Below, piece by piece: positions 4,599 to 25,500 of a DNA stretch of 42,496 bases (the first letter of the stretch is position 1; the number at the start of each line of letters is the position of its first letter). A program made the position numbers and the translations under genes. The DNA is taken from the NCBI GenBank assembly GCA_964576265.1, contig CAZNVB010000202.1, forward strand, positions 1 through 42,496. Direction: 5' to 3'. A model generated the notes under the pieces. It did no database searches. It saw nothing but the letters and a program-made list of their open reading frames with translations, and was not told the origin of the DNA. The stretch is from an uncultured Eubacteriales bacterium (GTDB lineage: Bacteria > Acidobacteriota > Aminicenantia > Aminicenantales > UBA8522).

Positions 4599-5705
4599 AT
4601 GAGACGATTTGTTTGGCGCAAGGCCATGATGTTCATTTTTCTTTTGACGGCTTACTCGGGCGCTCAGGAAACACCGCCCGGCAAGAACCCTATCCGGGTA
4701 GGGATCATTCGCTGCGACACCCACGGGATGTACTTCGGACCCCTCCTGAGTCGGCACGATCCCTGGAAACTCCGCGATCCGCTGAAGTTCACCCCGGGAC
4801 CGCAGCGTTATACCTGGCAGAGCGGGGCTTCCCATTTCGCCTTTTACGGTCACTACTATCAGCAGGATAAAATGACCGTTCCCTTCGTGGAGGGTTTCGA
4901 GGTCGTCAAGGTCTGGGACGAGTTCCCTGACGCCGCCGAGTGCGCGGCGAATGTTTTCATCAACAAACCTCAGGTGGCGAAGACCTTCGAAGAGGTCTCG
5001 GACGGGGTCGACCTGGTCATTGTCGCCGATTCGAACTTCGACGGCTCCGACCACCTCAAGCTGGCCTCGCCAGGGCTGGCCAAAGGGGTCCCCACTTTCG
5101 TGGATAAGCCTTTGGCTTCAAACTACGCGGAAGCGAAGGCCATGGTCGAGCTCGCTCTGCGGCATCGCACTCCGCTCCTCAGTCTGTCGATGCTTCGAGT
5201 CCTGCCTGAAGCCGAATTCTTCCGCCACCGCTTTCCCGAAATCGCGCCCGTCCAATTCGGCGTCATCAGGGGCGGCTGGAAGACTTTGGCGGCTCAGATT
5301 CACTCTCTGAGCCTGGCCCAGCTGCTTTTCGGCCCGGGAGTCGAGGAAGTGGAATGCATGGGCGCATCGCCGCTGGCCACCATTCACTTGAGCTACGGCC
5401 AGCGGCCCGATCGGCCCGAGGACGGGGTGATGGTCCTTTGCATCTCCGGAAAATCGTCGATCCGGTCCCAGTATTATGCCTCCGCTTACAGCGAAAACGG
5501 GGCTATCCATTCCAATCCACTGAATTACTTCACCTACCCCTACGGGGCCGTCGAAATTATCAAAAAAATGAAAGAGATGGTTTGGACCGGCAAACCTCCG
5601 GTACCCTATGAGGAGATGCTCGAACTGATCGCCATCGTCGATGCCGCTCGGCTCTCGCAAAAAGAAAAACGGCCCGTCCGGCTCGAGGAAATCACCGCCC
5701 AATGA
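4599..5705 (+). CDS. Gfo/Idh/MocA-family oxidoreductase with signal peptide
   Basis: RBS GAGGAGG. Signal peptide ending AYSGA-Q. IRVGII Rossmann strand, GVDLVIV, H...A...L.KG.PTFVDKPLA, C-terminal AARLSQKEKRPVRL. Confidence 0.8.
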   Translation: MRRFVWRKAMMFIFLLTAYSGAQETPPGKNPIRVGIIRCDTHGMYFGPLLSRHDPWKLRDPLKFTPGPQRYTWQSGASHFAFYGHYYQQDKMTVPFVEGFEVVKVWDEFPDAAECAANVFINKPQVAKTFEEVSDGVDLVIVADSNFDGSDHLKLASPGLAKGVPTFVDKPLASNYAEAKAMVELALRHRTPLLSLSMLRVLPEAEFFRHRFPEIAPVQFGVIRGGWKTLAAQIHSLSLAQLLFGPGVEEVECMGASPLATIHLSYGQRPDRPEDGVMVLCISGKSSIRSQYYASAYSENGAIHSNPLNYFTYPYGAVEIIKKMKEMVWTGKPPVPYEEMLELIAIVDAARLSQKEKRPVRLEEITAQ

Positions 5706-8700
5706 AAGGGACGTCTGCCATGTGGCCTCTCATTTTCTTGTTGTGCCTCGGCCTTCTTGTTGGGTTGGCCTACTCAGCGATGAGGTCGGAGGAGGAGCCC
5801 AGCCATATCGAGCCTTTTATTTATGAACAGAGTTTTTCTACCGGAGAACTCGTGGGCTGGGCTTCCTATCCGCCAAATCAGGATACGGCCTACGACCCTT
5901 ATGTTTATCCAGGGAAAATCCGCCCCGACGATCCGGGGATTTGCCTGGTCGTTCGAGCGGAGCCTCCTTGGAACGAGGACCAGCTCCTGGGCGCCGTGAA
6001 GATCATGGATTTCATTCTCGATCGAAGTTTCCGACTCGGCTTCCGGTTCTATCTCAAGACGGTGGACCGCTCGACGGAACTTGCCGTTCACTTCCCCCTG
6101 GCCGACGGAAGACGTCTGATCTACCGACTGCCGGAGCCGCCGCAGAACCGCTGGGCGGAGATCGATCTTTCCTGGAAAGACCTTCTGGCCGCCGGACTCG
6201 TGTCCGAGAAAGAAAACAAGCTGCGAGTGACAGCCCTGGCGCTCACCGCCCGGATTTCTCGTGCCGACCCGTCGGTTCCGATTCATCTGGGTCTCGACGA
6301 CATTCGCCTCTGCGGCATCCGGGAAAAGTCGTTTAATTTTTTTGAACCGGAAGTGACCGTCCTCGACGAGTGGAAAGAGCGCATTCCCCGCCGCCACTAT
6401 CGGCAGGGAGAGATCTTTCGCCTGAGCGGAGATTTCGGCTTCCTTCCGGACGAGGTTCGATTGGTCATTTCCGAGTTTATCGATCGAAATAATATTATTT
6501 TAGACGCCCGCCTCGATCAGGCGAAAAATAAGCTTTGGGAATCCGGGAAGATTCTGATTTCTCCGGACCGTTTTCCCCTCGGTCTTTATCGCGGGACGAT
6601 CACCGCCCGAAAAAAAGCCGCTGTTGTGTCGCGAACCGAATTCACTCTTTTCGTCGTCTCCGAATCGAAAAAGCCCGCTCATCCCCGTCTCTTTTTCGGC
6701 CCGGGAGAACTTCGCCGCTTTCAAGAACGCCTGAATTCGGACCGTTTCCGGCCGGTCCTCGAACGTTTTCTCTCTCGGGCCAGATCCTACCGGGAAGAGC
6801 TCGAGCCGGCAAAGCTTGTTTTCGATATCGACCAGTTTCCCGAACAAGACTGGATCGCCAGCCTTCCCGCCTGGTACAAAGACCGGTTTATGGCGTTCCG
6901 CGAAGCTCTTTTCACCAATGCCGTCGCCCTCCTCAGCGGCCGCGATGATGAAGCCGGTCCGTTTGCCAGAGCGCTTCTTCTTCAGCTTTCTTCCTGGCCT
7001 CAATGGAATCATCCCTGGATGGAGCGACGCGGTTTTCACACCTATTACCCCCTGGGCGAGTTCGCCGAAGCTTTTGCCGTGGCCTATGATGCCGTCTTTG
7101 ACCAACTCTCCGAGGAAGAGCGGAAATTGGCCCGTCGAGGACTGATGAGGAATTACATCAAGCCCGCCTACCGCACCTACGTCGAACAAAACCAGGTGAC
7201 GAGCAATTCCTCGAATTGGATCAGCCACATTGCCGGCGGAGCTCTTCTCGGATTGATGGCCATCGCCTGGGACGACGCCGAACTCGGCGACCTCGAACCC
7301 TGGCTGACGGGTTTTATCCTGAAAGAACATCGATATATCACGACGGTTTTCGGCCGGGACGGCTCATACGGGGAAGGCTTCCGCTATTACAACTTCGCCA
7401 TGAAATCCTTCGCCAAAACCATTCCCACCCTAAAGAGAATTTTCGGGCTCGACCTCTCCGCCCCGTTTTTCGGCTCGCACCAAGAAACGCTTTGGTCCTC
7501 CATCGTCGAGAAGAATCTCTCATTTGGGTTCGGGGACACGGAAAGTTATCTTAAGCAGGAGGCCCAAGCGTGGTGGATCGGCGGGGAGAGCGGCCCGATG
7601 AACAACTGGGCTTGGCTTCTCGAACTTTCGCGCGATCCTTCCCTCGCCTGGCTCTACGGCCAACTCAAGGAATTCGACACCCTGCAAGAGGTCCTTCATG
7701 AAACCTCCGACATCCGGCCCGAACGGCCCGAAAGCCTCGGCACGGTCCGGTTCTTTCCCGATGTCGGGACGGCCGTCTTCCGTTCCGGTTGGACTCCGGA
7801 GGACTTCCTTTTCGTTTTTCGCAGCGGGCCTTTTTTCAACCATCAACATCTGGATCAGGGCTCTTTTGCCTTCGTCGATCATGGAGAGGTTTTTCTTGAA
7901 GAACGTTATGACGGCGAGCATCACTACTACGACGACCCGGTCTACCGCAGTCATGCCATTCAGCCGATCAGCCACAACACGATTCTCCTCAACCGCAACC
8001 CGCAGAGTCAGAAAGTCGGCGACCCGAAAGGGTTTGCCCCCGGGATGAATGACCAGGCCCGGCTTCTTCACTGGCTTGACGCGCCGGATCTGGCGTTCGT
8101 CGCCGGAAGCCTGGAAAAGGTTTATGTCGACGAAGTCCGCCAACTCAAACGGAATGTCGTTTTTCTTAAACCGCGGTCGATCCTTCTCATCGACGAGATC
8201 GTTCCGGCCCGAGCTCCGATCGAGGTCAACCGTCTCTTCCATACCCGTTGGAAAAAAGATATCTGCCCAGGAGACTGGGAGAGCCGGATTACGAAGGGCT
8301 CGAAAGTTCTGCGCCTTGTTCATCTGGCCCCGGAAACAGCCGTCAAAGAAATCCTCCGTGAGCCGCATTTTCTTTATCAATACGCCGCTCGTCCCCTGAT
8401 CGAAAGAGGTTATCTTCAGATCTCGGACCGAACGGAAAAAGAGAAACTCATTTTCGCCGACCTGCTCAGCGCTGCTCCTGAAGGAAGCCCTTCGCCATAT
8501 GAGATCGAGAAGCACAAAGAGTCCGTTTCGATCCGCCGAAAAATGGGAGAACGAACCCAAACGGTCGTTTTGAATCTCGGCTCGTCCATTTCGCTCGGCG
8601 ATTGGTCGAGCGATGCGCTGATTCTCGCTTCGAGCTCACGGGGGGAAATTTTCCTGGCCAGAGGAACGACTCTTTCCCTGGAAGGCGGAATCAAACTCCA

Positions 8701-8926
8701 TTCGGACAGGCCTTTTTATGGTCTCCTCCGCCGGGACAATGATCTCCTTGAACTCGAAGCGAATCAGGAAGAAAAAACGACTGTTTCTCTCTTTGGCCTC
8801 GTCGCACCGCGGCGGATCGTCGTCAACGGCCGGCCGTTCAAGGATTTCCGCTTTGATTCTTCCCTGTCTTTACTGCAGATATCTCTCCCCCCGGGGTCAA
8901 GTCGGATTCTCGTCTTCGGTCGATAA
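5702..8926 (+). CDS. Heparinase II/III-family (DUF4962 + Hepar_II_III) polysaccharide lyase-like protein, paralogue 1
   Basis: Signal peptide; HPRLFF, SNWISH, DGSYGEGFRYY, FGD, G.AVFRSGW, HQHLDQGSF, SHNTILLN. ATGA overlap with the upstream gene; alternative start 5720. Confidence 0.85.
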   Translation: MKGTSAMWPLIFLLCLGLLVGLAYSAMRSEEEPSHIEPFIYEQSFSTGELVGWASYPPNQDTAYDPYVYPGKIRPDDPGICLVVRAEPPWNEDQLLGAVKIMDFILDRSFRLGFRFYLKTVDRSTELAVHFPLADGRRLIYRLPEPPQNRWAEIDLSWKDLLAAGLVSEKENKLRVTALALTARISRADPSVPIHLGLDDIRLCGIREKSFNFFEPEVTVLDEWKERIPRRHYRQGEIFRLSGDFGFLPDEVRLVISEFIDRNNIILDARLDQAKNKLWESGKILISPDRFPLGLYRGTITARKKAAVVSRTEFTLFVVSESKKPAHPRLFFGPGELRRFQERLNSDRFRPVLERFLSRARSYREELEPAKLVFDIDQFPEQDWIASLPAWYKDRFMAFREALFTNAVALLSGRDDEAGPFARALLLQLSSWPQWNHPWMERRGFHTYYPLGEFAEAFAVAYDAVFDQLSEEERKLARRGLMRNYIKPAYRTYVEQNQVTSNSSNWISHIAGGALLGLMAIAWDDAELGDLEPWLTGFILKEHRYITTVFGRDGSYGEGFRYYNFAMKSFAKTIPTLKRIFGLDLSAPFFGSHQETLWSSIVEKNLSFGFGDTESYLKQEAQAWWIGGESGPMNNWAWLLELSRDPSLAWLYGQLKEFDTLQEVLHETSDIRPERPESLGTVRFFPDVGTAVFRSGWTPEDFLFVFRSGPFFNHQHLDQGSFAFVDHGEVFLEERYDGEHHYYDDPVYRSHAIQPISHNTILLNRNPQSQKVGDPKGFAPGMNDQARLLHWLDAPDLAFVAGSLEKVYVDEVRQLKRNVVFLKPRSILLIDEIVPARAPIEVNRLFHTRWKKDICPGDWESRITKGSKVLRLVHLAPETAVKEILREPHFLYQYAARPLIERGYLQISDRTEKEKLIFADLLSAAPEGSPSPYEIEKHKESVSIRRKMGERTQTVVLNLGSSISLGDWSSDALILASSSRGEIFLARGTTLSLEGGIKLHSDRPFYGLLRRDNDLLELEANQEEKTTVSLFGLVAPRRIVVNGRPFKDFRFDSSLSLLQISLPPGSSRILVFGR

Positions 8927-8952: not shown

Positions 8953-8982
8953 TTGCGGCGCGGCTGGGCCCATCGTTATAAT
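8953..8982 (+). promoter_or_regulatory. Candidate sigma70 promoter for the peptidase
   Basis: TTGCGG-N18-TATAAT (consensus -10). Confidence 0.5.
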
Positions 8983-9010
8983 GAGAATGCTCTATGGAAA
9001 GGAGAGCGTG

Positions 9011-11131
9011 ATGAGGAAAAACAAACGGTTCTCTTTTATTCCCGTCTTGGCCGTTCTTCTGATGGCGACAGGATGCCGGAGCCAGCGTCCGGATCTTGTC
9101 TATCCGAACACTCCCAAGGTTGATGTCGTCGACGATTATTTCGGAACAAAGGTCGCCGACCCCTACCGCTGGTTGGAAGACGACAAAGCGGAAAACGTCA
9201 GGCAGTGGGTTGAAGCGCAGAACAAATTGACCTTCGGCTATCTCGCGGCCATCCCTTTTCGGGAAAAAATCCGCCAGCGCCTGACCGAGCTCTACAATTA
9301 TCCCCGCTATTCTTCGCCCGTCCGGGTCGGCGAATATTATTTTTTCTCTAAAAATGACGGCCTGCAAAACCAAAGCGTCATCTATTTCCAAAAAGGCCTC
9401 GACGGCGAGGCGACGGTTTTCCTCGACCCGAACACCCTCTCCCCGGATGGGACGACCCGGGCCTACCTCAGCGGCTTCTCCAATGATGACCGTTATGCTT
9501 GTTATTCCATCTCGGAAGGAGGTTCCGACTGGACTGAAATCCGGGTCATGGAGATCGAAACCAAAAAAGAGCTCGGCGATCGGATCCAATGGACAAAATT
9601 TGGCGGCGCTGCCTGGCAAGGAGACGGATTCTACTACAGCGGTTTCGACAAGCCCGAAGCCGGGCGCGAGCTCACGGCCGCTAATGAGAACCAAAAGATT
9701 TTCTACCATCGTCTCGGCACACCCCAAACCGAAGATCGTCTGATCTACGCCGACCCGGAGCATCCTCGGCGCTATCACCGCGTCGAGGTCACCAAAGACG
9801 AACGCTTTTTGCTCTTGAGCGTCTCTGAAGGGACTCACGGCAACGAGCTCTATTGGAAAGACCTCCAAGCTCCTCAAGCCGATTTCATACCGCTCGTTCG
9901 GGGGTTCGAGCACAACACGGATGTCATCGACAACCTCGAAGACAAGTTCCTGGTGGTCACAGATATCGATGCGCCGAACAAGAAAATTATGCTCGTCGAT
10001 CCGCGCCGCCCGGCTCGGGAGGACTGGCAGCTCATTGTTCCGGAAAGGCAGGAAACCCTGACCCATGCCGCGGTCATCGGCGGAAAGCTGTTCGTCGGCT
10101 ATCTCAAGGACGCCACGACGAGAATTTTCCAGCATGACCTGGCCGGGAACCTGGAGAAAGAAATCCCGCTTCCCGAGCTTGGAAGCGCAAGCTTCGGAGG
10201 GAAAAGAGATGATCCGATCATGTTCTATACGTTCACGACCTTCACCCGCCCGCCGGAAATCTATCGGTACGACATCGCCTCAGGAAGATCGGAAGTTTTT
10301 CGGCGTTCCGAGGTGAATTTTAACCCCGATGATTTCGAGACCCGCCAGGTTTTTTATCCGAGCAAAGACGGAACGAAAATCCCGCTGTTCATCGTCGCCA
10401 AAAAGGGGTTCAAGCGGAATGGAAAGAATCCGGCGTACCTCTACGCCTACGGCGGCTTCAATGCCAGTACGCTGCCCGTGTTTAACGTGGCCAACATCGT
10501 TCTTCTGGAAAACGGAGGAATCTACGCTTCCGCCAATATCAGAGGCGGAGGGGAATACGGCGAGGCCTGGCATCGAGCCGGGATGCTGGATAAGAAACAG
10601 AATGTCTTCGATGATTTCATCGCCGCCGCCGAGTATCTTATCCGGGAAAAGTACACTTCGAGAGACCGGCTGGCCATCGCCGGCGCCTCCAACGGCGGGC
10701 TCCTTGTCGGAGCCTGCATGACCCAGCGGCCCGATCTGTTCAAAGTCGCCTTTCCGGCGGTCGGAGTCATGGACATGCTGCGCTTTCACAAATTCACCGT
10801 CGGCTGGGGATGGACGGTCGAATACGGTTCGAGCGATCATCCCGAGCAATTCAAATACCTGTACGCCTATTCCCCTCTCCATAACATTAAGGAGGGGGTG
10901 AATTATCCGGCGACTCTGGTGACCACAGCCGACCACGACGACCGGGTCGTGCCGGCTCATTCCTACAAATTCATCGCCACCCTGCAGGAAAAGCACCGCG
11001 GCCGGAATCCGGTCCTCATCCGTATCGATACGAGATCCGGACACGGAGCAAGCAGCACGACCAAGGCGATCGACCAACTGGCGGACCGATGGGCGTTTTT
11101 CTTTTATCATGTCGGCCGACAGGTCCGATAA
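9011..11131 (+). CDS. Prolyl oligopeptidase (S9A), lipoprotein
   Basis: Lipobox LMATGC; DPYRWLED, YGGFN, RGGGEYG. Catalytic triad motifs GASNGG, DHDDRV, GHG. RBS GGAGAG before ATG 9011. Confidence 0.95.
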   Translation: MRKNKRFSFIPVLAVLLMATGCRSQRPDLVYPNTPKVDVVDDYFGTKVADPYRWLEDDKAENVRQWVEAQNKLTFGYLAAIPFREKIRQRLTELYNYPRYSSPVRVGEYYFFSKNDGLQNQSVIYFQKGLDGEATVFLDPNTLSPDGTTRAYLSGFSNDDRYACYSISEGGSDWTEIRVMEIETKKELGDRIQWTKFGGAAWQGDGFYYSGFDKPEAGRELTAANENQKIFYHRLGTPQTEDRLIYADPEHPRRYHRVEVTKDERFLLLSVSEGTHGNELYWKDLQAPQADFIPLVRGFEHNTDVIDNLEDKFLVVTDIDAPNKKIMLVDPRRPAREDWQLIVPERQETLTHAAVIGGKLFVGYLKDATTRIFQHDLAGNLEKEIPLPELGSASFGGKRDDPIMFYTFTTFTRPPEIYRYDIASGRSEVFRRSEVNFNPDDFETRQVFYPSKDGTKIPLFIVAKKGFKRNGKNPAYLYAYGGFNASTLPVFNVANIVLLENGGIYASANIRGGGEYGEAWHRAGMLDKKQNVFDDFIAAAEYLIREKYTSRDRLAIAGASNGGLLVGACMTQRPDLFKVAFPAVGVMDMLRFHKFTVGWGWTVEYGSSDHPEQFKYLYAYSPLHNIKEGVNYPATLVTTADHDDRVVPAHSYKFIATLQEKHRGRNPVLIRIDTRSGHGASSTTKAIDQLADRWAFFFYHVGRQVR

Positions 11132-11240
11132 CTCGGGCTTCTCATCTCCCGGAGTCCCGCGAGTCCGCTTCCTGTCGAAAGCGAGCAACTTATCGATTAG
11201 CGAGAACGAGAAACGTGCTTCCTGAGCGTTGGAGAAACAA

Positions 11241-15882: not shown

Positions 15883-18800
15883 ATGAGAAACATTTTCGCT
15901 CTGTGGCTCATCAGTCTTCTGCTTGTTCAGACTGTTCGGGCCGACCGCCGAAGGGACGCCTTTAAAATCCTGGAACCTCGGACTTTCCGGGCTGATTTCG
16001 AAACCGGATCGGTCGGTCCTTGGTCTTCCTATCCCCCTGCTCAAGACACGGCTTATGACCCGACGATCTGGGTCAAAAAAATCGAAGGGAACCCGTCTCT
16101 CTGCTTGGTTCGCGAAATAAGCGCCTGGACGCCGAAGGATTATCTTTTCGGCGTTAGAAAAAAGCTCCGCCTCTATCTGACCCGGGAAAGCCTTATTTCT
16201 TTTCGCTTTTACCTTAAAAGCTACGGCGAAGCTGAGGAGGTCATCGTCAAGCTGGGATTCGGCGACGGAAAATCGAGGGAAATTCCCGTTCCGGTGAAAA
16301 AACGGATGTCCTGGCAAGACGTCCAGATCAGGCTTGGACAGGACCCCGATTTGACCGACCCGGTTAGGTTGGATGCCCTGGCCATCATGGCTCTCTGCCG
16401 TCGAGCCGATCCTGAAGCCAAACTCAGGCTGGCTGTCGACGACCTCGTCATTACCGGCTACGAAGAAAAGAAAATCCGGATCCGGAAGCCAAAGGTTCAT
16501 GATCTTGATGAACTCAAATTAGCTGTGGCGGGAGACCATTTTCAGGAGAATCAGAAGCTCGCCGTCGAGATCGACGTTCCCGTGGCATTGAAGTCGGCGG
16601 AGATCAGACTCGAGAAAGACTGGGAAGGATTTACCACGGCTTCCCTCAAGATGAAACGCGAGTCCAAGAATCTCTGGTCGGCCGAGGTTCCCGGGCTCGA
16701 GCCCGGTCTCTGGCGGGCAAACATCATCGGTCGAACGGCCGCCGGCAATTCCCTGGAATCGGCTCTTGTTTTCTTAGTCAGGCCCTTTTCCTCTCCCCCC
16801 GATCATCCTTTCCTTCTTTTCACTGAGAGCGGCCTGACGGGGATAAAAGAGGCTCTCCGAAGCGGGCGGACGACGGCTGTGTGGGAGACGGTCCGTAGCG
16901 AAGCGGCGGCTTTTCGGGAAAAATTCGATCCGCAGGATTTCCGCTATAATCTGGACGCATATGATGAAATCTTCTGGCTTCCGACTTACGAAGGATACGT
17001 GAGAGCGCTCCACACGCCCTCCCGTTTCATCCGGGAGAATGCGATCGTCTACACCGTTTCAGGCGACCGAACGGCCGGAGAGGCCGCCCGCCGGGCTCTT
17101 CTCGCCATTGCTTCCTGGCCGAGCTTTGTCCATCCTCACATCCTCAACCAAGGGCAGTTCACTTACTGGCCCGTGGGCCTGGCGCTCATCGATTTTGCTC
17201 TAGGTTACGATATGGTCTATGACCTTTTCACCCCGGAGGAGCGCAAAACGGTAGCCGACGCCCTGTTCCATAAGGGAGTCACGGAGGTTTTTAAAGAATA
17301 TGTTCGGGACAATCGCGTTTCTTCCAACACCTCGAACTGGATCAGTCACGTGACCGGAGGCGGGATTCTTTGCGCCCTGGCGATCAGCCGGGAATATTCT
17401 CCCGCCGAGCTCGAGCCCTATCTGACAGGGATGATCGTCAAGCTGAAGGAATTTATCGACAGCACGTTCGATCCCGACGGCTATTACGGAGAAGGGTACT
17501 ATTATCATAATTTCGCCATGCAATCGCTTTCTCACAGTCTGCCGGCTCTCCGGAACCACTTCGGCCTCGACTACCCCAAAAAAGTCGCCGACTCTTATCA
17601 ATATATTCTTTATCAGCAGAACAATGAGACCGGCCGGATCTACGAGTTCGGAGACGCTCATGACGACCTGATTCCCTCATCGATGAGCAATTTCGCCTTT
17701 ATCCTCCATTCCGGCGGAAACCCTCACCTGCTCTGGCTCTATCGCCAGAGGCCGGGAAACAATTACCTCGACCTTCTTTTCCCGGCACCGGAGGGAAAAG
17801 GGGCCGCTCCCTCAGACCTTCCTCTCGTCAAGAGGCTGCGCCGTGTCGGCTCGGTCATTTTTCGCTCGGGATTCGGATCCGATGATTTCGTCTTTATCAC
17901 CAAATGCGGTCCGTTTTTCAACCATCAGCACTTCGATCAGGGGTCGTTTTTCTTGGCCGACCGGGGAGAGCTCTTTATCGAGGAATGCGGAAATTCCAAT
18001 TATTACGAAGATCCGTGGTATCCGCGGCTCTACATCCAGGCTGGAGGACACAATACCCTGCTCACCGACTCGGACATCGAGTCGCAGATCGCCGGTGATT
18101 TCTCCCACGATGTTCCCGCTTGGCAGAATTACGCCCGGATAACGGAATTCCTCGATTGGAAGGAAGGGGCCTTCTTGTCTGCCGACCTCGCTCCGGTTTA
18201 CGCCGGAAAATGGAAAAGCCTGAGGCGAGATATCCTCTATCTAAAGCCGCGGACGATCCTTCTCGTCGATCGAGGCGAAGGAGGGTCGGAGGCGACCGGA
18301 TTGAGCCTGCGGATCCATCCTCCACGGCGGGATGACCTTCAGGTCGAGGGAAAAATCGCTAAGATCACCCGAGATGGAAAAGCTCTCTACATCCGGACGC
18401 TTGCACCCGAGGAGTATGAAACCCGGATTCTCAAGCGGCCGATGAGCCTCAATGAATTCAAAGCGGAAAACCCGATCACCATGAAGGCCAGAGGATTTCT
18501 CGAGCTCTCGACCCGTCCGATCGACGGGAAATGCACCTTCATCAATATCTTAGGCACCGAGCCGGAGATGACGGTCGGTCTGAAGGCGACCAAACACACG
18601 GGCTTCCTTGAGATCTCAGCGGATCAGGGCCAATACGCCATCAGCGATCATCCGGGAAGTCTTTATAAGTGCGGCGAATTCGAAACCGATGCTTCCGTAT
18701 TCGGCCGGATCTCCGAAGCTCTCCTCGTCCTTCACGGCACCTCGCTCAGCGTGCAGGGCCGACCGGTTCTCAAGGCCAAAGCGCCGGCGTCTCTTTGTCT

Positions 18801-18990
18801 TGTTCAAACGAGCCGGGAAATCCGCCTCGACTTCTCGTCTTTTTCGGGCACCGAGATCGAACTCCGGACCGGAAAGAAACCCCAATCCCTCCTCTTAGGA
18901 GAAACATCGATCCGCGATTGGAATTATCAAAACGGCCTGGTTGCGGTTCGCCTTCCGGCCGGGGAAGGCTCCCTGAAGATCGTCTTTTAG
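15883..18990 (+). CDS. Heparinase II/III-family polysaccharide lyase-like protein, paralogue 3
   Basis: RBS GGAGGTG; signal peptide ending TVRA. HPFLLF, SNWISH, DGYYGEGYYYH, HQHFDQGSF, GHNTLL. Closest to paralogue 2. Confidence 0.85.
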   Translation: MRNIFALWLISLLLVQTVRADRRRDAFKILEPRTFRADFETGSVGPWSSYPPAQDTAYDPTIWVKKIEGNPSLCLVREISAWTPKDYLFGVRKKLRLYLTRESLISFRFYLKSYGEAEEVIVKLGFGDGKSREIPVPVKKRMSWQDVQIRLGQDPDLTDPVRLDALAIMALCRRADPEAKLRLAVDDLVITGYEEKKIRIRKPKVHDLDELKLAVAGDHFQENQKLAVEIDVPVALKSAEIRLEKDWEGFTTASLKMKRESKNLWSAEVPGLEPGLWRANIIGRTAAGNSLESALVFLVRPFSSPPDHPFLLFTESGLTGIKEALRSGRTTAVWETVRSEAAAFREKFDPQDFRYNLDAYDEIFWLPTYEGYVRALHTPSRFIRENAIVYTVSGDRTAGEAARRALLAIASWPSFVHPHILNQGQFTYWPVGLALIDFALGYDMVYDLFTPEERKTVADALFHKGVTEVFKEYVRDNRVSSNTSNWISHVTGGGILCALAISREYSPAELEPYLTGMIVKLKEFIDSTFDPDGYYGEGYYYHNFAMQSLSHSLPALRNHFGLDYPKKVADSYQYILYQQNNETGRIYEFGDAHDDLIPSSMSNFAFILHSGGNPHLLWLYRQRPGNNYLDLLFPAPEGKGAAPSDLPLVKRLRRVGSVIFRSGFGSDDFVFITKCGPFFNHQHFDQGSFFLADRGELFIEECGNSNYYEDPWYPRLYIQAGGHNTLLTDSDIESQIAGDFSHDVPAWQNYARITEFLDWKEGAFLSADLAPVYAGKWKSLRRDILYLKPRTILLVDRGEGGSEATGLSLRIHPPRRDDLQVEGKIAKITRDGKALYIRTLAPEEYETRILKRPMSLNEFKAENPITMKARGFLELSTRPIDGKCTFINILGTEPEMTVGLKATKHTGFLEISADQGQYAISDHPGSLYKCGEFETDASVFGRISEALLVLHGTSLSVQGRPVLKAKAPASLCLVQTSREIRLDFSSFSGTEIELRTGKKPQSLLLGETSIRDWNYQNGLVAVRLPAGEGSLKIVF

Positions 18991-19082: not shown

Positions 19083-22000
19083 ATGGCCAACAGCCGAAGA
19101 GAAATCTCAGAAAAAAAATTGACGACGGGGGGAATCATCTTATTTTTCTTATTTTTTTCTATGTTATATTCCACGCCTCCTTCGCCGACGCTCGACGATC
19201 CCAAGCATCTCGAGCCCTGCATTTATCAAGAAAATTTCGAGACCAACGAACTCAATGCCTGGGCTTCTTATCCCCTCTGGCAGGATACGGCCTTTGACCC
19301 GAATCTCCGACCGGGACGAATCGTTCCCGGCGATCCGAACATCTCTCTTCTTTTGCGAGTCACTCCCTACAGCCACGTCGATCAGTATGCCGGAGCCCAG
19401 AAAGAGCTCGATTTATGGTTCACTCCCGATTCCAAAATCAGCTTGAAATTCTATCTCAAGACCGAAGGAAAAGCGGAATATCTGAAAATCCGGCTGGGAG
19501 CCGGAAAAGAAGGCCAAATCGATTTCACTTTTTCCGATCCTCCGACCAACCGCTGGCATGAAGTCACCGTTACACAGAAGGATTTGGCCGCTCAAAACCC
19601 CGGACTGGCCGGCCGGACAATCGAGTTAAAGGGACTCGCGGTTTTAGCCAAGTTCCCGAACGCCGACCCGGCCATGCCGATTTATTTCGGCCTGGACGAT
19701 ATTGTCATCAACGCCGCCCGGTCAGCTGAATTTGTTTTCCTCGAACCCCAGACGAACAAACTGGCTGAATGGAAACCCTTGATCATCAGCCGTCATTATC
19801 AGCGAGGAGAAATCTTTCAGGTCAAAGGCCGCTGGCCGTTCGCGTCCGAGCGCGTCCTTCTGCGGGTCTCGGACTTCGCTTCAAGAACAAAAATCGTTTT
19901 CCAATCCCGGCTCAAGCCGACGGCCGACGGATGGATTCTTCCGCCTGTCAAACTGGATTGGCCGGAGGGGCTTTATCTCGGCGAAATTGTCGCCCAGACG
20001 TCTGGAACCGAAACGGCCAGGACGCCGTTCACTCTCCTCGTCGCCCCAGCCAATCTCTCCGGAAGACATCCGCGGTTGTGGTTCGATGATCGAGGCCTGG
20101 AGCTAGCGAGAGTCCGGATCGGCGAAGAACGCTTCCGTCAGCTCGCCGAATCCCTTTCCAGGAGTGCCCGAGAAGCCAGGGAAAATCTGCCGCTTGAGAA
20201 CGTGATCTTCGATATCGATATCTTTCCCAAGGACGAGCCGACCCTGGGAAATGTCCCGCGATCAATTTACGCCTGGTTTGACCGGATTCGTCCGTGGCGG
20301 ACAGCGGTCCGGCAGAACTCCCTGGCCTACGCGCTGCTCGACGATCAGGAAGCGGGACTGTACGCCAAAGGCTTGATCGTCCGCCTCTGCGGCTTCCCGA
20401 TCTGGCTCCATCCCTGGTTCGAAAGCCGAGGCCAGCATATTTATTATCCTGTCGGCGAGCTTGGAATGGACGTCGCTCTCGCCTATGACCTCGTCTTCGG
20501 TCTGCTGAGTGAAGAGGAACGGAAAATCGTCCGCGCCGGCCTGCGAAGAAACGTCGTCGATGGCTGCCACCGCAGCTATGTAGAAGACGATCTTGTCACG
20601 AACAACACCTCCAACTGGGTCGCCCACATCACAGGAGGATCGTTGATGAGCCAGGCGGCAATCTATGGGGACGGCGAGGACGGCGCCAGCGTCGAGCCTT
20701 ATTTCACCGGAGCTGTGTTCAAACTCCATGACATGATCCAAAAATCGATCGGCCGGGATGGAGGCTACGGGGAGAGCTACGGCTACTGCAATTTCACCAT
20801 GGAATCTCTCTCTAAAGCCCTTCCGGCCCTGATCAACGTTTTCCACATCGATCTCTCCGGTCCCATCGCCCTGACTTATCAGGATATTGCCTGGGCGACT
20901 CTTTTTGACAAAAAATTCTTTTTTTATTTCGGCGACAGCAGTGGAAACCTCGGCCCGATGACCAACTGGGCCTGGTTTCTGGCGAAGCGGAGCGATCCCC
21001 TTCTTGGCTGGCTCTATCATTTTTTCAAAAAGGAGGAAACGCTTGCCGACCTCCTCTACCCGACGGATCAGGCGCCGCGGCACGACCCGTTCGGCGAGAA
21101 TCCCGTTCGGCTTTTCAGGGACATCGGGACCACCGTCTTCCGCAGCGGCTGGGATAAAGACGATTTTGTCTTTGTCATGAGAAGTGGGCCTTTCTACAAT
21201 CACCAGCATCTCGATCAGGGGACTTTTTGGCTGGCCGACCGGGGGGAAGTTTTCATCAAAGAACGACAAGGAAGCACCTATTACGACGACCCGATCTACC
21301 AATCTCATTACACCCAGCCCGTGGCCCATTCGACGATTCTCATCAACCGCAATCCCCAGAGCCAGCGGGTCGGCGATCCGCTCCGCTTCATTGACGGCTT
21401 TGCCGATCAGGCGTCCGTCGATCATTTTCTTGACGGCACTCGGGCGGCCTTTGTTTCCGGGGATATCGGAAGACTTTATTGGAACAAAATCCGCTCGCTG
21501 AAGCGGAACGTCCTCTATCTCAAGCCCAGGACTGTTCTGATGCTCGATACGGTCGAGCCGGCGGAAAACGATGCGGAAGTTACGATTCTCTATCAGGCTG
21601 GAGAGTTCAAGGATATCCATCCCGATCGAACCGCCTCGGCCATCCACAAAGGCAGTCAAACGCTTTCCATCGCCCATCTCTGGCCCGAGAATAGAGATGT
21701 CCGGGTGGAAGAGACCCCCCTCTACATCAACACCCTGAAGACGTCGAACCCTCTCGTTCGTGAGGGAATGCTCACCGTGACCACGAGAACAGATTCCGGC
21801 CCGCTGGTCGTGGCCAACCTGCTGACGACGGCCGCCGGAAAAGATGTCCTGACCGGGTCCATAGAAAAGCGATCGGGATGCGTCGAAGGCCGGATGGAAG
21901 ATCTTTTTTTCATCTTTTCCACTCGACCAGGCGGAATCTATAAGACTCCCCTTTGGACGAGCGACGCGCTGGCCTTGACCTGGAAAGACGAATGGCGGTT

Positions 22001-22259
22001 TGCCGCTCTGTGCACCACTTTATTTGAAAACGGAGTTCCGGTCCTTCAATCGAGCGAACCCTTGACCTGCGAAATCCTGCCGAAAAAGATGAAAGGCTAT
22101 CTTTCCCGGCCCGGCGAGATCAGTCTGCGACGAGAAAAAAGGCCGCGGTCGATCGTTTTGGGGAAGAAAAAATTGGATAAATTTATCTGGGAAGACAAAA
22201 GCCGGATGCTGAAGCTTCGTCTTCCCGCCGGAGAGAGTGTCCTTGTCTTTTATGATTGA
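19083..22259 (+). CDS. Heparinase II/III-family polysaccharide lyase-like protein, paralogue 4
   Basis: RBS AAGGAGA; N-terminal hydrophobic segment. HPRLWF, SNWVAH, DGGYGESYGY, FGD, HQHLDQGTF, AHSTILIN. Closest to paralogue 1. Confidence 0.85.
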   Translation: MANSRREISEKKLTTGGIILFFLFFSMLYSTPPSPTLDDPKHLEPCIYQENFETNELNAWASYPLWQDTAFDPNLRPGRIVPGDPNISLLLRVTPYSHVDQYAGAQKELDLWFTPDSKISLKFYLKTEGKAEYLKIRLGAGKEGQIDFTFSDPPTNRWHEVTVTQKDLAAQNPGLAGRTIELKGLAVLAKFPNADPAMPIYFGLDDIVINAARSAEFVFLEPQTNKLAEWKPLIISRHYQRGEIFQVKGRWPFASERVLLRVSDFASRTKIVFQSRLKPTADGWILPPVKLDWPEGLYLGEIVAQTSGTETARTPFTLLVAPANLSGRHPRLWFDDRGLELARVRIGEERFRQLAESLSRSAREARENLPLENVIFDIDIFPKDEPTLGNVPRSIYAWFDRIRPWRTAVRQNSLAYALLDDQEAGLYAKGLIVRLCGFPIWLHPWFESRGQHIYYPVGELGMDVALAYDLVFGLLSEEERKIVRAGLRRNVVDGCHRSYVEDDLVTNNTSNWVAHITGGSLMSQAAIYGDGEDGASVEPYFTGAVFKLHDMIQKSIGRDGGYGESYGYCNFTMESLSKALPALINVFHIDLSGPIALTYQDIAWATLFDKKFFFYFGDSSGNLGPMTNWAWFLAKRSDPLLGWLYHFFKKEETLADLLYPTDQAPRHDPFGENPVRLFRDIGTTVFRSGWDKDDFVFVMRSGPFYNHQHLDQGTFWLADRGEVFIKERQGSTYYDDPIYQSHYTQPVAHSTILINRNPQSQRVGDPLRFIDGFADQASVDHFLDGTRAAFVSGDIGRLYWNKIRSLKRNVLYLKPRTVLMLDTVEPAENDAEVTILYQAGEFKDIHPDRTASAIHKGSQTLSIAHLWPENRDVRVEETPLYINTLKTSNPLVREGMLTVTTRTDSGPLVVANLLTTAAGKDVLTGSIEKRSGCVEGRMEDLFFIFSTRPGGIYKTPLWTSDALALTWKDEWRFAALCTTLFENGVPVLQSSEPLTCEILPKKMKGYLSRPGEISLRREKRPRSIVLGKKKLDKFIWEDKSRMLKLRLPAGESVLVFYD

Positions 22260-22274: not shown

Positions 22275-23633
22275 ATGAAGAGACGAGCCTTTTTAGCCGG
22301 GTCATCGGCCGCCGCCGCTTCGGCTCTGGCCGGCGCCTGGGGCTGCCGGAATGAAAATGTCTCCGATCACGGGGCGGGAACGGAAGGACCGGGGAAAATC
22401 CAAAGCGCCACGCCTTTTTCCATTTCGGATCTCGAGCGCCTAAAAAAGCAATACGAATACGACCTTTACGAGGACTTTCTTCCCTTCATGGAGAAATATG
22501 TCATCGACCACGAATACGGCGGGTTCATGTGCAACACCGACCGCGACGGGACAAATCTCTCAACGGATAAGAACACCTGGTACGAAGGTCGCGGAATCTG
22601 GGTCTATTCGTTTCTCTACAACAACCTCGCCCGGGAAGCCAAGTATCTCGACGTGGCCGCTAAATCCGCCGAGTTCATCCTTAAACATAAACCGGCGGGC
22701 GATGGACTCTGGCCTTCCGCTTTCACCCGCGAAGGGGAAGCCAAGGGAGAACCGGATGCCAGAGGCTACGGCGACCTGTTCGTGGCCGGCGGGCTGGCGG
22801 AACTTGCCAAAGCTTCGGGTGAGAAAAAATATTTCGACCTGGCCAAAGAAATCATCGCCAAAGTCATCCGCCTTTACGATCGGGAAGATTACCATCCGGA
22901 AGCCGGCCGGAGTTATCTCGGACCGACGGCCCCACAGACACCCGGGGCTCGCGTTCTCGGCGTCTGGATGGTCCTGATCAACACGGCAACCCAGATGCTG
23001 GATCACATTGCCGACGCCGAAATTTTGGCCGTGGCCGACCGGGCTCTCGAGGCGATAATGACGTATCATTACAACCCGGATTTCGACCTTCTCAACGAGA
23101 TCCTGAATCACGATCTGTCTCGGCCCCAGAACGAATATGCTCAATTTTCTTATACCGGCCATGCCATCGAGACGCTGTGGATGGTTCTTTATGAGGCCGC
23201 CCGGAGGAGGGACAAAGCCCTCTTTGATCTGGCGGCGCGGCGCTTCCGGCGGCACGTGGAGGTCGCCTGGGACGATGTTTACGGCGGCGCCTTCCGCTCG
23301 CTTGATCATGTCGATAAGAATATCTGGAAAGTCGATAAAGTCCTCTGGCTCCAGGAGGAAGTTCTGATCGGCTCTCTCTTTCTCATCGAGCACACCGGAG
23401 CCTCCTGGGCCCGGGAGATGTTCGATCGGATGAACAGCTATGTCCGAGAAAAATTCACTCTCCAACAATACGGATTTCCCCTCTGGATGCACGCCGCCGA
23501 CCGCAAAGCGACCTTTGAAAGACATTCCAACCGGGTAGAAAACTTTCATCACCCGCGTCATCTCATGCTCAACCTGCTTTCCATCCGGAGAATGATCGAC
23601 CGGAAGGGCAGAGTCTCCGGTCTATTTGCCTGA
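22275..23633 (+). CDS. AGE-family (N-acylglucosamine 2-epimerase-like) protein, Tat lipoprotein
   Basis: RBS AAGGAGG; signal MKRRAFLAG...LAGAWGC. Family motifs LPF...IDHEYGGF.C..DRDG, K..WYEGRGIW, GHAIETLW, WDDVYGG, KVLWLQEE, FHHPRHL. Confidence 0.9.
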   Translation: MKRRAFLAGSSAAAASALAGAWGCRNENVSDHGAGTEGPGKIQSATPFSISDLERLKKQYEYDLYEDFLPFMEKYVIDHEYGGFMCNTDRDGTNLSTDKNTWYEGRGIWVYSFLYNNLAREAKYLDVAAKSAEFILKHKPAGDGLWPSAFTREGEAKGEPDARGYGDLFVAGGLAELAKASGEKKYFDLAKEIIAKVIRLYDREDYHPEAGRSYLGPTAPQTPGARVLGVWMVLINTATQMLDHIADAEILAVADRALEAIMTYHYNPDFDLLNEILNHDLSRPQNEYAQFSYTGHAIETLWMVLYEAARRRDKALFDLAARRFRRHVEVAWDDVYGGAFRSLDHVDKNIWKVDKVLWLQEEVLIGSLFLIEHTGASWAREMFDRMNSYVREKFTLQQYGFPLWMHAADRKATFERHSNRVENFHHPRHLMLNLLSIRRMIDRKGRVSGLFA

Positions 23634-23944: not shown

Positions 23945-24703
23945 ATGGACAAAATGCGCTTTTTCGACTGCAACTGCTCAATCGGGAGGATAGGATATCC
24001 TCACCTTCTGGATATCCCCGACGTTTCTGGCCTAAGGCGCGAGATGAAGACCGCCGGAATTGAAGAAGCTCTCGTCTATCACGTCCTGGCCCGCGACGGC
24101 CATCCTCCTCTCGGCAACACGCTTCTCCTCGAGGAGATCAAAGGCCAGGCCGGCCTCTATCCTGTCTGGGTCCTCCTCCCCCATCACACGGGAGAAATGC
24201 CGCCGCCTGAAAGACTCCTGGAGGAGATGAAAAGCAAGGGAGTCCGGGCCGCCAGGGTTTACCCCGGACGCCTTCACCACAGTTTCACCCTAGCCGAGTG
24301 GTCAAGCGGCGAACTCTTGACAGCCCTCGAGACAGCCAGGCTTCCGCTCATCCTGGACATCGAAATCGTCACCTGGGAGGAGGTGCATTCCCTGCTTCAG
24401 AAATACCCTCAGCTGCCGATCGTCCTGGCGAATTTCACCTACCGGCACAACCGCTTCCTCTATCCGTTGTGGGAACGGTTCGACAGCCTGTACATTGAAA
24501 TTTCCCGCTTCATGGGCGGAGGGGCCATCGAGGACGCCGTTCGAAGGTTTGGCTCCCGTCGGATTCTCTTCGGGACAAACATGCCCCATTATACGGGGAC
24601 GGCGGCTGTCGCCCGGCTGACCTATGCCGACATCTCCTGGGATGATAAGAAAGCGATTGCGGCGGACAATCTCGATCGAATCCTGAAGGAGGTCTGGTCA
24701 TGA
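23945..24703 (+). CDS. Amidohydrolase-2 family TIM-barrel protein with degenerate metal site
   Basis: FFDCNC in place of D-x-H-x-H; M..AGIEEALV, YPQLPIVLAN, LYIEIS, FGSRRILFGTNMP, IAADN..R. Confidence 0.8.
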   Translation: MDKMRFFDCNCSIGRIGYPHLLDIPDVSGLRREMKTAGIEEALVYHVLARDGHPPLGNTLLLEEIKGQAGLYPVWVLLPHHTGEMPPPERLLEEMKSKGVRAARVYPGRLHHSFTLAEWSSGELLTALETARLPLILDIEIVTWEEVHSLLQKYPQLPIVLANFTYRHNRFLYPLWERFDSLYIEISRFMGGGAIEDAVRRFGSRRILFGTNMPHYTGTAAVARLTYADISWDDKKAIAADNLDRILKEVWS

Positions 24704-25500
24704 CGGATTATTTCGCCCAGATTCACCGCGGTCTCCCCTTGAACGATGTCGAGATCATCGATCTTCATGCTCATCTCGGCCCCTACTTCAACATGCACAG
24801 CCCCTCGACCGAAGCCGCGGACGTCGTCCGGATGATGGACCTCTGCGGCATCGAAAAGGCGGTCATCTCGACGACCTTCAGTTTTGACACGGATATTGTC
24901 CTGGGGAATACGACCATGCTCCGGGCGATCGATTCGTTTCCCGGGCGGCTTTACGGCGCTTGCGGAATCAACGGGAACTATCCGGAGCTCTCGCTCGATG
25001 AGCTGGAACGGACATTCAGGCGGCCCGACGTCGTCATGATCAAGGTCCACCCGATCAGCTCAAAATGCCGACTCGACGACCGCCGGATGAATCGCCTCTT
25101 TGATTTTGCCTCGAGCAGACGGCTCTTTGTCCTTGTTCACACCTGGCTGGACAATGATCCTTACGGAAATCAGGATCTTTTCGCTTCGGTCGCCGCCTCA
25201 TATCCGGAGATCAAATGGATCATGGGCCATTCCGGAGGCCCTTATGGAAGCATCCATGCGGTAGAGCTGGCTCAGAAGACGCCGAATATTTTTCTTGATC
25301 TGACTTTGTCGATGTGCCCGGCGCGTCAGGTAGAATTTTTTGTCCAAGAAATCGGCTCGGAGCGGGTCCTCTTCGGAACCGACAGTCCTTTTCTCGATCC
25401 GCGTCTCCAAATCGGCCGGGTCGCTCTGGCCGATATTCCTCAAGCGGACAGAATCAACATCTTCGGCGCCAACGCCCGGCGCCATATCCAATTCGTCTGA
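24700..25500 (+). CDS. Amidohydrolase-2 family metallohydrolase
   Basis: IIDLHAHLG, IKVHP, VLVHT, WIMGHSG, ERVLFGTDSP, IFGANARR. ATGA overlap with the upstream paralogue. Confidence 0.9.
   Translation: MTDYFAQIHRGLPLNDVEIIDLHAHLGPYFNMHSPSTEAADVVRMMDLCGIEKAVISTTFSFDTDIVLGNTTMLRAIDSFPGRLYGACGINGNYPELSLDELERTFRRPDVVMIKVHPISSKCRLDDRRMNRLFDFASSRRLFVLVHTWLDNDPYGNQDLFASVAASYPEIKWIMGHSGGPYGSIHAVELAQKTPNIFLDLTLSMCPARQVEFFVQEIGSERVLFGTDSPFLDPRLQIGRVALADIPQADRINIFGANARRHIQFV

Follow-up and report, generated by a model that had tools for sequence, protein, structure and literature searches.

Introduction

The described enzymes closest to the proteins reported here are lyases of the heparinase II/III-type superfamily. 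Among them, the polysaccharide lyase family 35 (PL35) enzymes, such as GAGase II (PDB 8khv), GAGase VII (8khw) and chondroitinase 9o3q, consist of two modules, an (alpha/alpha)6 toroid and a two-layer beta-sheet. According to the report on this family, they are composed of 624-648 residues, show 35-37% identity with the founding enzyme and have broad specificity (PMC11262172). According to a second report, Asn192, Tyr246, His401 and the Mn ligands His403, Asp405, Asp421 and His457 of PL35 are each required for activity (PMC12088678). Other relatives with solved structures are the PL39 alginate lyase Dp0100 (6jp4), the PL15 exolytic lyases (Atu3025, 3a0o; exoHep, 6lja), heparinase II of PL21 (2fuq) and human dermatan-sulfate epimerase 1 (6hzn), which is a eukaryotic biosynthetic enzyme. 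In a single-amplified genome of Latescibacteria, which also yielded one of the loci compared in this study (L044), PL12/PL21-annotated heparinase-like genes are proposed as possible ulvan lyases (PMC4454575). Here, a run of co-directional genes (4599 to 25500, + strand) encoding four paralogous proteins, termed H1-H4, is analysed in a stretch of 42,496 nucleotides from an uncultured Aminicenantia bacterium (contig CAZNVB010000202.1 of assembly GCA_964576265.1). The window means this whole stretch.

The four proteins have the fold and the catalytic residues of these lyases, but they are longer (1035-1074 residues, as compared with 624-648 residues in PL35), with five domains in the H2 model as compared with two modules in PL35, and are distant from all of them in sequence. 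In our joint working model, which we hold with moderate confidence, the gene run encodes a catabolic system that depolymerises a glycan outside the cytoplasm, with four H paralogues of ancient divergence at its core, and the cluster probably breaks down an acidic, amino-sugar-containing glycan. The cluster is probably a deep or unclassified branch of a well-known superfamily, in which an unusual build of five domains is combined with an array of four orthogroups and with unusual partners, and not a new kind of system.

Materials and methods

Relatives were sought in 185,579 species, each represented by a single genome. This search gave 171 stretches, and 72 loci from 58 assemblies were retained for the neighbourhood comparison and labelled L001-L072. 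Phyla of the relatives were taken from record titles; 16 of the 72 loci carry no phylum label, and some labels of metagenome-assembled genomes (MAGs) are doubtful. Conserved neighbours in the 72 loci were detected by tblastn with the window proteins as queries (E ≤1e-8, at least 40% of the query covered). Clusters of open reading frames (ORFs) were named by scanning their representatives. The census of the remaining neighbours covered the unscanned cluster representatives of at least 220 residues (234 proteins, E ≤1e-12), in addition to the earlier sets. The Pfam and NCBIfam scans of the window covered 27 ORFs. The Pfam cut-offs are 24 bits (gathering) for Hepar_II_III_C (PF07940), 28.7 bits for DUF4962 (PF16332), 23 bits for Transglut_core and 23.4 bits for PF07221. 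The structure of H2 was modelled with AlphaFold2 on an alignment of 29 sequences, and residues are numbered according to H2. Trees were constructed with FastTree (72 rows) and IQ-TREE (71 rows, the long-branch row L052_6621 being excluded).

Results and discussion

Sequences of the four paralogues

H1 (5702..8926, 1074 residues, orthogroup 1), H2 (11229..14348, 1039 residues, orthogroup 2), H3 (15883..18990, 1035 residues, orthogroup 3) and H4 (19083..22259, 1058 residues, orthogroup 4) are encoded in the same direction on the + strand between positions 5702 and 22259, and can be aligned over their full lengths. The BLASTP identities over about 1000 residues are 50% between H2 and H3, 38-39% between H1 and H4, 30% between H1 and H2, and 31% for H1-H3, H2-H4 and H3-H4. 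These similarities are well above the chance level. Each protein has a hydrophobic, signal-like N-terminal segment, and the four-way alignment contains the invariant columns SNW, (Y)GE(G/S)xxYxNF, NHQHxDQG and H(N/S). The initial annotation, which described four co-oriented paralogues of about 1050 residues with signal-like N-termini and SNW, EG/ES..Y, HQHxDQG and HN/HS motifs, is thus borne out by the ORFs, the identities of 30-50% and the invariant columns.

The Pfam domain Hepar_II_III_C is detected in H2, H3 and H4 with 47.1, 37.6 and 27.5 bits, respectively, while the score of H1 (23.5 bits) is narrowly under the cut-off. The match is located in the beta-sheet domain. DUF4962 gives 17.3-21.3 bits for H1, H2 and H3, which is under its cut-off, and no match for H4; many homologues of the H family bear a precomputed PF16332 annotation. 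The H2 gene starts either at TTG 11229 or at an ATG four codons later. The sequence collection's own prediction for H2 contains 895 residues (86% of the ORF), but the conservation of the N-terminal domain in the paralogues and homologues shows the longer reading to be right.

Predicted structure and catalytic residues

The H2 model has a pLDDT of 90.6 and a pTM of 0.90. A leader (residues 1-26) precedes two beta-sandwiches, which span residues 33-200 and 202-305. Residues 322-636 form an (alpha/alpha)6 toroid, residues 653 to about 900 a beta-sheet domain, and residues 905-1038 a C-terminal beta-sandwich. H1, H3 and H4 align with the modelled H2 over the full length. The toroid and the beta-sheet domain are common to PL35 and the H family, whereas the two N-terminal beta-sandwiches and the C-terminal beta-sandwich are additional to PL35. 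When residues 28-306 of H2 are compared with the ESM Atlas, they lead to clusters resembling carbohydrate-binding modules (CBM11, CBM27, CBM30, Lyase_N; scores 0.82-0.91). These leads are used no further than for the label of a CBM-like beta-sandwich.

Foldseek comparison of the H2 model with the PDB gives lyases with a toroid and a beta-sheet, one epimerase and nothing else, at 10-18% identity. The matches are PL39, PL15, PL35, PL21, PL17, PL33, PL12, PL8 and PL40 structures and dermatan-sulfate epimerase 1, and the Foldseek probability is 1.00 for PL39, PL15, PL35, PL21, PL17 and PL12 structures. The best fold match is the PL39 alginate lyase Dp0100 (E 1.4e-27, TM by target 0.69), and the profile alignment with this structure extends from residue 305 to residue 1019 of the query and from residue 20 to residue 754 of the chain, that is, from the toroid through the C-terminal beta-sandwich. 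The identity is, however, 15%, and the neighbours of the H family are amino-sugar genes, not alginate genes. Atu3025 (E 1.2e-23) and exoHep of PL15 have an N-terminal beta-sandwich ahead of the toroid, as does H2, and the Tyr/His chemistry of the PL15 exolytic lyases is that of the H family, but the identity is 13-16%. The identity to the nearest folds as a whole (PL39, PL15, PL35, PL21 and dermatan-sulfate epimerase) is 13-18%.

The residues N490, Y546, H685, H687, D689, E705 and H727 of H2 are invariant in 29 family sequences. In the profile alignment with 8khv, N490, Y546, H685, H687, D689 and E705 correspond to N170, Y224, H379, H381, D383 and D399, respectively, and H727 corresponds to a later His. 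A 22-residue offset converts the 8khv chain residues to the numbering of PMC12088678 (Asn192, Tyr246, His401, His403, Asp405, Asp421 and His457). Thus, the Asn of NW, the Tyr of EGxxY and the first His of HxHxD are common to PL35 and the H family, and the omega-loop metal site His-Asp-Asp-His of PL35 is matched by H687, D689, E705 and H727, with Glu instead of Asp421 as the third ligand. As judged from the aligned residues, the predicted apparatus that abstracts a proton at uronate C5 is complete in all four copies. This set of residues fits lyase and epimerase chemistry alike, and the two are not separated at the level of sequence. The model, the Foldseek matches and the full set of catalytic and metal-binding residues bear out the earlier assignment of a Hepar_II/III-type fold, and the predicted structure places the H paralogues in the heparinase II/III-type superfamily (PL12, PL15, PL17, PL21, PL35 and PL39).

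Distribution of the family and age of the four copies

A phmmer search of 1.84 billion cluster representatives gives 125 matches at E ≤1e-30, 767 at E ≤1e-10 and 2763 at E ≤1e-3. Twenty-three of the 72 loci are from Bacteroidota, mostly Chitinophagaceae together with the isolate Daejeonella rubra DSM 24536 (L052), and eight are from Latescibacterota. The other phyla represented are Acidobacteriota/Aminicenantes, Alphaproteobacteria (Kordiimonadaceae) and Ignavibacteriota, with single loci from Verrucomicrobiota, Sumerlaeota and Kryptoniota. A hydrophobic leader is present in 66 of the 69 family members that bear the N-terminal motif (three of the 72 rows are without the motif), and a lipobox-like FAC sequence occurs in several of those from Bacteroidota and Ignavibacteriota.

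In the IQ-TREE tree, each of H1-H4 clusters with one gene of L007 and one gene of L001 or L005 with 100% SH-aLRT support, and the FastTree tree agrees. The L007 counterparts are 62-68% identical to H1-H4 (L007_2210, 65% to H1; L007_7406, 62% to H2; L007_11981, 66% to H3). H4 is closer to Daejeonella and Kordiimonadaceae proteins (43-45% identity) than to H1-H3 (31-39%), and the four-copy set is retained in at least three other assemblies. These results indicate, at the level of sequence, that H1-H4 are ancient and separate orthogroups. We infer that this old paralogy fits a division of labour among four specificities.

Genes adjacent to the family in other genomes

The window proteins that recur most often in the 72 loci, as detected by tblastn, are the amidohydrolase pair AH1/AH2 (17 loci), the SSS-family transporters (14-15), the N-acylglucosamine 2-epimerase (AGE)-like protein (12), the D-isomer 2-hydroxyacid dehydrogenase (HADH) (8) and the transglutaminase-fold protein TGL (4). 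Other recurrent ORF clusters are absent from the window. They are cytoplasmic or Tat-type Gfo/Idh/MocA proteins (15 of the 72 loci), SDR proteins (13), NagB-like proteins (10), Nramp-like transporters (10), KdgK-like PfkB proteins (9), NagA (8), SusC (8), aldo-keto reductases (8), SusD (7), GH84/GH20-like proteins (6), NagP-like MFS transporters (6), FAH proteins (6), class III aminotransferases (5), M20 deacylases (5) and Eda (3). The curated NCBI cut-offs are passed by the SDR protein as D-mannonate oxidoreductase (318 vs 281), by NagA (296 vs 226) and also by Eda. The NagA/NagB/NagP, UxuB-like SDR, KdgK and Eda neighbours are found in Bacteroidota and Alphaproteobacteria, and SusCD is found additionally in Bacteroidota. 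The gene directly after the H gene encodes SDR in 10 loci and the AGE-like protein in six loci and the window, and the gene directly before it encodes an MFS transporter in five loci and an Nramp-like transporter in four. The lyase-SDR-KdgK pattern beside the H relatives presumably recalls the gene pattern of exolytic uronate lyases.

These contexts follow the tree. The clade of H4 is accompanied by AGE, AH, SSS and TGL genes, and its sister clade by NagA, NagB, SDR and KdgK genes, with SusCD in its Bacteroidota members. In Daejeonella rubra, the order is Transglut_core (748 residues), NagA, NagB, NagP, H, H, UxuB-like SDR, UxuA (598 bits), ECF sigma, FecR, SusC and SusD. Thus, the link to amino sugars and uronates that had been suggested from the window alone is supported by relatives that adjoin NagA, NagB, NagP and GH84/GH20-like genes as well as UxuB-like SDR, UxuA, KdgK and Eda genes.

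Absence of SusCD was originally regarded as a feature of the system. It is true of the window, in which the TonB-receptor, SusD, GH88/GH105, KduI, KduD and PfkB/KdgK models match none of the 27 ORFs, but not of the family, because H-family members of Chitinophagaceae and Daejeonella are located in typical SusCD loci with ECF sigma/anti-sigma, SusC, SusD, GH84/GH20-like, NagA, NagB and NagP genes. Since SusCD stands beside the same family in Bacteroidota, its absence is a lineage trait. Instead of SusC and SusD, the window has SSS transporters and an exported protein of 467 residues with a weak beta-barrel match (2067..3470, + strand; OMP_b-brl 16.6 bits at the C-terminus, below cut-off; family unassigned). 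Homologues of this protein are located upstream of the lyase array in L001 and L005, and it could, to judge from its sequence, serve as an uptake channel that replaces SusC. The observation in the initial annotation that the GH88/GH105 and KduI/KduD/KdgK enzymes are absent from the window also holds more widely for two of them: GH88 is located beside the family in one of the 72 loci (L037), and neither KduI nor UxaC gives a model match in the neighbour censuses across these loci. No sulfatase Pfam match is obtained in the same censuses.

Hints of a glycoprotein or other glycoconjugate are found in individual loci. They are a PNGase F C-domain next to the Nramp-H genes (L039), GH125 adjoining H together with GH130 (L042), Asparaginase_2 with a second AGE-like gene (L016), a NanA-like gene (L057) and DUF386 (L068). 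In addition, BNR_2 is found in L017, L033 and L041, and S9 peptidases in L035 and L039. Transglutaminase-fold genes are located beside the family across unrelated phyla, as members of the TGL cluster (L007, L069, L070 and L072) or as longer forms (Daejeonella, L052, and L017).

Accessory proteins encoded between and after the paralogues

The initial annotation placed an exported Gfo/Idh/MocA enzyme, a prolyl oligopeptidase lipoprotein and a transglutaminase-like protein between the paralogues, followed by a Tat-lipoprotein AGE epimerase and an amidohydrolase pair, and regarded the system as exported. The prolyl oligopeptidase is clearly identified, the AGE-like protein scores above the Pfam cut-off and the paralogues have leaders, but the Gfo-like match is partial, the TGL score is below cut-off, the AGE lipobox is imperfect and the amidohydrolase pair is cytoplasmic, not exported.

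The prolyl oligopeptidase (8981..11131, + strand) has a lipobox-like ATGC sequence and is a probable lipoprotein. Both the S9A beta-propeller and the catalytic domain are matched (Peptidase_S9_N 418.8 bits, Peptidase_S9 219.4 bits). TGL (14488..15852, + strand) is anchored to the membrane by its N-terminus and gives 20.6 bits with Transglut_core, as compared with the cut-off of 23. Its homologues number at least 149, some of them with PF01841, and its triad C261, H296 and D313 is invariant in 14 sequences.

The divergent Gfo/Idh/MocA-like protein (4599..5705, + strand) has a Sec-type signal. Its match with the Pfam NAD domain (39.3 bits) spans profile positions 25-112 only, the C-domain gives 12.9 bits, which is below cut-off, and the sequence reads GIIRCDTHG where the glycine-rich loop is expected, without the canonical GxGxxG. 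Its gene overlaps the start of H1 by 4 nt. The last approximately 95 nt of this ORF (window 5610-5705) are about 90% identical to L007 2115-2210, despite the presence of an old yellow enzyme (OYE)-type gene there. This stretch before H1 is either left over from a gene since replaced or has been conserved as a coupling or leader element.

The AGE-like protein (22275..23633, + strand) gives 83.7 bits with PF07221, and the NCBIfam equivalog model gives 169.5 bits, below its cut-off of 600. It matches PDB 6f04 over residues 54-411 (E 1e-34), and the GH(A/G)IE motif is kept. As far as is known, the characterised members of the AGE family are cytoplasmic enzymes. In contrast, the window protein has a twin-arginine leader (MKRRAFL) followed by an imperfect lipobox (AWGC), and each of the 10 AGE homologues beside the lyase family whose N-terminus is intact likewise carries a twin-arginine. 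In the Aminicenantes MAG of L020, a different Hepar_II_III_C protein (positions 16389-18854, 821 residues, 56 bits) is encoded between two Tat-signal AGE-like genes. This arrangement indicates that the partnership with AGE-like proteins reaches another branch of the superfamily.

AH1 (23945..24703, + strand) and AH2 (24700..25500, + strand) are Amidohydro_2 paralogues by Pfam, both without a signal peptide. Their genes overlap by 4 nt, and wherever the pair occurs, the two genes are neighbours and overlap. In AH2, H23, H25, H117, H147, H177 and D228 are invariant, as expected for the metal ligands (HxH, three further His and the strand-8 Asp). AH1 has DxN instead of HxH, and Asn or Gly instead of the strand-8 Asp. 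AH1 and AH2 may form a heteromer with one catalytic subunit, because the genes overlap by 4 nt and are constantly paired. The AH2 model has a pLDDT of 86.5, and its Foldseek matches are 3cjp, ACMSD-type decarboxylases, LigW, LigJ hydratase and uncharacterised amidohydrolases, which are generic Amidohydro_2 relatives only, such that no function is assignable from this search.

Proposed system

In the working model of an extracytoplasmic depolymerisation system, the paralogues would share out the linkages of a single acidic heteroglycan, each cutting its own by beta-elimination at a 4-linked uronate outside the cytoplasm. The target glycan would also hold N-acetylhexosamine, and may well be attached to peptide. 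A peptide-linked glycan would explain the presence of TGL in the window and of PNGase F-like, asparaginase-2, S9 peptidase, GH84/GH20, GH125 and GH130 genes beside relatives. TGL and, in the lineage of the window, the prolyl oligopeptidase would handle the peptide part, and the Tat-exported AGE-like enzyme would isomerise the released N-acetylhexosamine or reducing ends outside the cytoplasm. The SSS transporters would import the small products, and the cytoplasmic AH1/AH2 and HADH would process the acidic product, replacing the SDR-KdgK-Eda module of other lineages.

In a more far-reaching version of this proposal, the H proteins would constitute a new PL family, TGL would be an amidase and AH1/AH2 a cytoplasmic heteromer, and together with the Tat-exported AGE-like enzyme they would make up a GH88- and KduI-independent route. 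This route would dismantle peptide-linked acidic N-acetylhexosamine glycans of the microbial envelope (teichuronic-type polymers, S-layer or archaeal N-glycans, exopolysaccharides), and would serve necromass recycling across Aminicenantes, Latescibacterota, Ignavibacteriota, Chitinophagaceae and Kordiimonadaceae. It is put forward here as a tentative possibility.

Should the H proteins prove to be a separate, new lyase family whose specificity is its own, genes in several poorly known sediment and soil phyla would gain a named substrate, and the family would provide an enzyme tool for acidic glycans and point to a way to handle lyase products without GH88 and KduI. If they instead belong to a remote subfamily of PL35 or PL15 and their substrates are common glycosaminoglycans or alginate, the result is a routine annotation. 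The question is directly testable, since the cultured Daejeonella rubra DSM 24536 has members of the family.

Several observations weigh against the depolymerisation model. The lyase activity of the H family is predicted from its fold and residues, and no member has a known enzyme activity. Dermatan-sulfate epimerase (6hzn), itself among the fold matches, works with the same residues. SDR, KdgK and Eda are not detected in the window by the Pfam and NCBIfam scans, the likeness of AH2 to decarboxylases and hydratases is general only, and UxuA/UxuB suggest that saturated glucuronate, not a lyase product, is being processed. The H2/H3-type clade has different neighbours, which include an ABC-ATPase-like gene, HEAT repeats and, in some cases, glycosyltransferases. 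Among 49 loci flanked by 8 kb or more, 13 hold no recurrent neighbour family, the glycoconjugate hints come from a single locus each, and the gene calls within the 72 loci are crude (longest non-overlapping ORFs, subsequently clustered).

A reading in which sialic acid is the main substrate was suggested by the AGE, SSS, NanA-like, DUF386 and BNR genes beside relatives. It was rejected, because the catalytic residues are those found in uronate lyases and the AGE-like protein is exported. Sialic acid is possible as part of the substrate. Polymers of aminouronic acids may be a further candidate.

Alternative explanations

It is doubtful that the window holds no single system, but a lyase-like array with unrelated peptidase, transglutaminase-like, Gfo-like and methyltransferase neighbours. 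The prolyl oligopeptidase recurs in L007 alone among the 72 loci, the Gfo-like protein also recurs in one locus, apart from a C-terminal remnant in L007, and the methyltransferase recurs in three. No peptidase or TGL gene separates the adjacent H genes of L001 and L005, and where the window has the Gfo-like gene, L007, L001 and L005 have an OYE-type gene. However, the genes from 4599 to 23633 are located on a single strand with intergenic gaps of -4 to 139 nt, which fit co-transcription. L007 keeps the whole order methyltransferase, (OYE), H1, prolyl oligopeptidase, H2, TGL, H3, H4 and AGE with 62-79% protein identity. Transglutaminase-fold genes recur across unrelated phyla, and the AGE-like gene, the AH pair and the SSS genes recur as well. 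The co-location of accessory genes assumed in the initial annotation is therefore found for the AGE-like gene, the AH pair and the SSS genes, but not for the peptidase and Gfo-like genes (one of the 72 loci each).

Alternatively, H1-H4 may be ordinary, distant members of PL35 (or PL15 or PL21), in which case the locus would serve the usual breakdown of glycosaminoglycans or alginate in a bacterium outside Bacteroidota. The best sequence matches in the PDB are indeed PL35 enzymes, the chondroitinase 9o3q (E 2.7e-19 for H2 alone, 1.4e-33 for the family profile) and 8khv. The types of catalytic and metal-binding residues are those of PL35, and the specificity of PL35 is broad (PMC11262172). Nevertheless, this explanation is unlikely. 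The profile scores for PL35 (119 and 114 bits), PL21 (102) and PL15 (102) are nearly level, with PL39 at 76 bits, and this result suggests that the H family is about equally far from several numbered families. The structural-alignment identity to PL35 is about 16-18%, and that to the nearest folds 13-18%, as compared with 35-37% between PL35 members and the founding enzyme (PMC11262172). The two-module PL35 proteins are also much shorter than the five-domain H proteins of about 1040 residues. Heparinase II shares the Hepar_II_III_C match with the H family, but the family scores of 23.5-47 bits lie around the cut-off of 24, and the NCBIfam HepB model gives 22-38 bits against its cut-off of 600. 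The same range of 22-38 bits is obtained with the NCBIfam heparinase and oligoalginate-lyase models as a whole, whose cut-offs are 600-1400. The rarity of GH88 and the lack of KduI and sulfatase matches in the censuses likewise speak against a routine locus of this kind. Literature searches on PL35, DUF4962, new heparinase-type lyase families, Latescibacteria, Aminicenantes and Chitinophagaceae gave no paper on the H family. By the literature and by the distance to solved structures, the H family is probably an uncharacterised branch of a known lyase class.

The third explanation, in which H1-H4 act on the bacterium's own surface glycan or exopolysaccharide as C5-epimerases at the polymer level or as other modifiers, in an envelope-remodelling locus, is decidedly unlikely. 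In its favour, human dermatan-sulfate epimerase 1 strongly matches the overall fold of H2 (E 8e-20, TM by target 0.61) with the same residue types, the paralogues are exported, the window has no downstream 2-keto-3-deoxygluconate pathway genes and glycosyltransferases are found in some H2/H3-type loci (L011, L012, L043 and L045). Against it, the gene context is catabolic, with most of the informative loci flanked by catabolic and uptake genes (NagA, NagB, KdgK, Eda, UxuA, SusCD, SSS and GH families), Pfam detects no glycosyltransferase, flippase or polymerase in the window, and lyases outnumber the single epimerase among the fold matches.

Other genes of the window

The left end of the window truncates SSSa, an SSS-family transporter (2..946, - strand; Pfam SSF, TIGR00813). 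Its N-terminus matches the SSS genes adjoining AH pairs in L017, L018, L022, L023, L024 and L072, and it represents the orthologue type of the SSS gene that is adjacent to the AH pair elsewhere (14 of the 72 loci by tblastn). It is followed by a DUF362 protein with a Tat-like RRREF signal (1168..2067, + strand; Pfam DUF362 113 bits), which is conserved upstream of the array in Aminicenantes loci (56% identity in L005, 53% in L001). The SAM methyltransferase-like protein with a hydrophobic N-terminus (3630..4493, + strand; Pfam Methyltransf_31/25) gives 135 bits with NF041081 (protein-lysine methyltransferase-like), which is below cut-off, and shows 79% identity to its L007 homologue and 69% to that of L001.

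The AH pair is followed by an ornithine cyclodeaminase/mu-crystallin family protein (25612..26583, - strand; Pfam 239 bits, 70% identity in L005), a GntR/FCD regulator (26696..27379, + strand; 65% identity in L005 and 58% in L018, GntR in three of the 72 loci by tblastn), HADH (27376..28401, + strand; 2-Hacid_dh_C 201 bits) and SSSb, a second SSS-family transporter (28456..30240, - strand; Pfam/NCBIfam matches and tblastn). The start of HADH is set by the N-termini of nine homologues (Met near 27376), while the longest ORF begins at 27217. The HADH and GntR genes therefore probably overlap by 4 nt only, and not by about 160 nt as in the longest ORF. A promoter and terminator scan of positions 22000-31000 is uninformative (8 promoter-like sites vs 3.2 expected, 17 terminator-like sites vs 11.6 expected), and Rfam gives no match anywhere in the window.

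Two adjacent paralogues of 579 and 526 residues (30578-32317 and 32298-33878), which have conserved counterparts in L005 (69% identity) and L012, match nothing in Pfam, NCBIfam or the PDB sequences. A clear xylulokinase gene comes next (33898-35448; TIGR01312, 500 bits). On the - strand, a URO-D/MtaA-like gene is located beside a glutamine-synthetase-like gene (35451-38137), and URO-D-like genes are also found near the family in L021 and L041. The region 38329-42434 (- strand), about 13 kb from the cluster, contains amino-sugar and cell-wall salvage genes. They encode NamZ exo-beta-N-acetylmuramidase (278 and 186 bits) and a NagX-like transmembrane glucosamine N-acetyltransferase, and the same region encodes an FHA-GAF-SpoIIE phosphatase.

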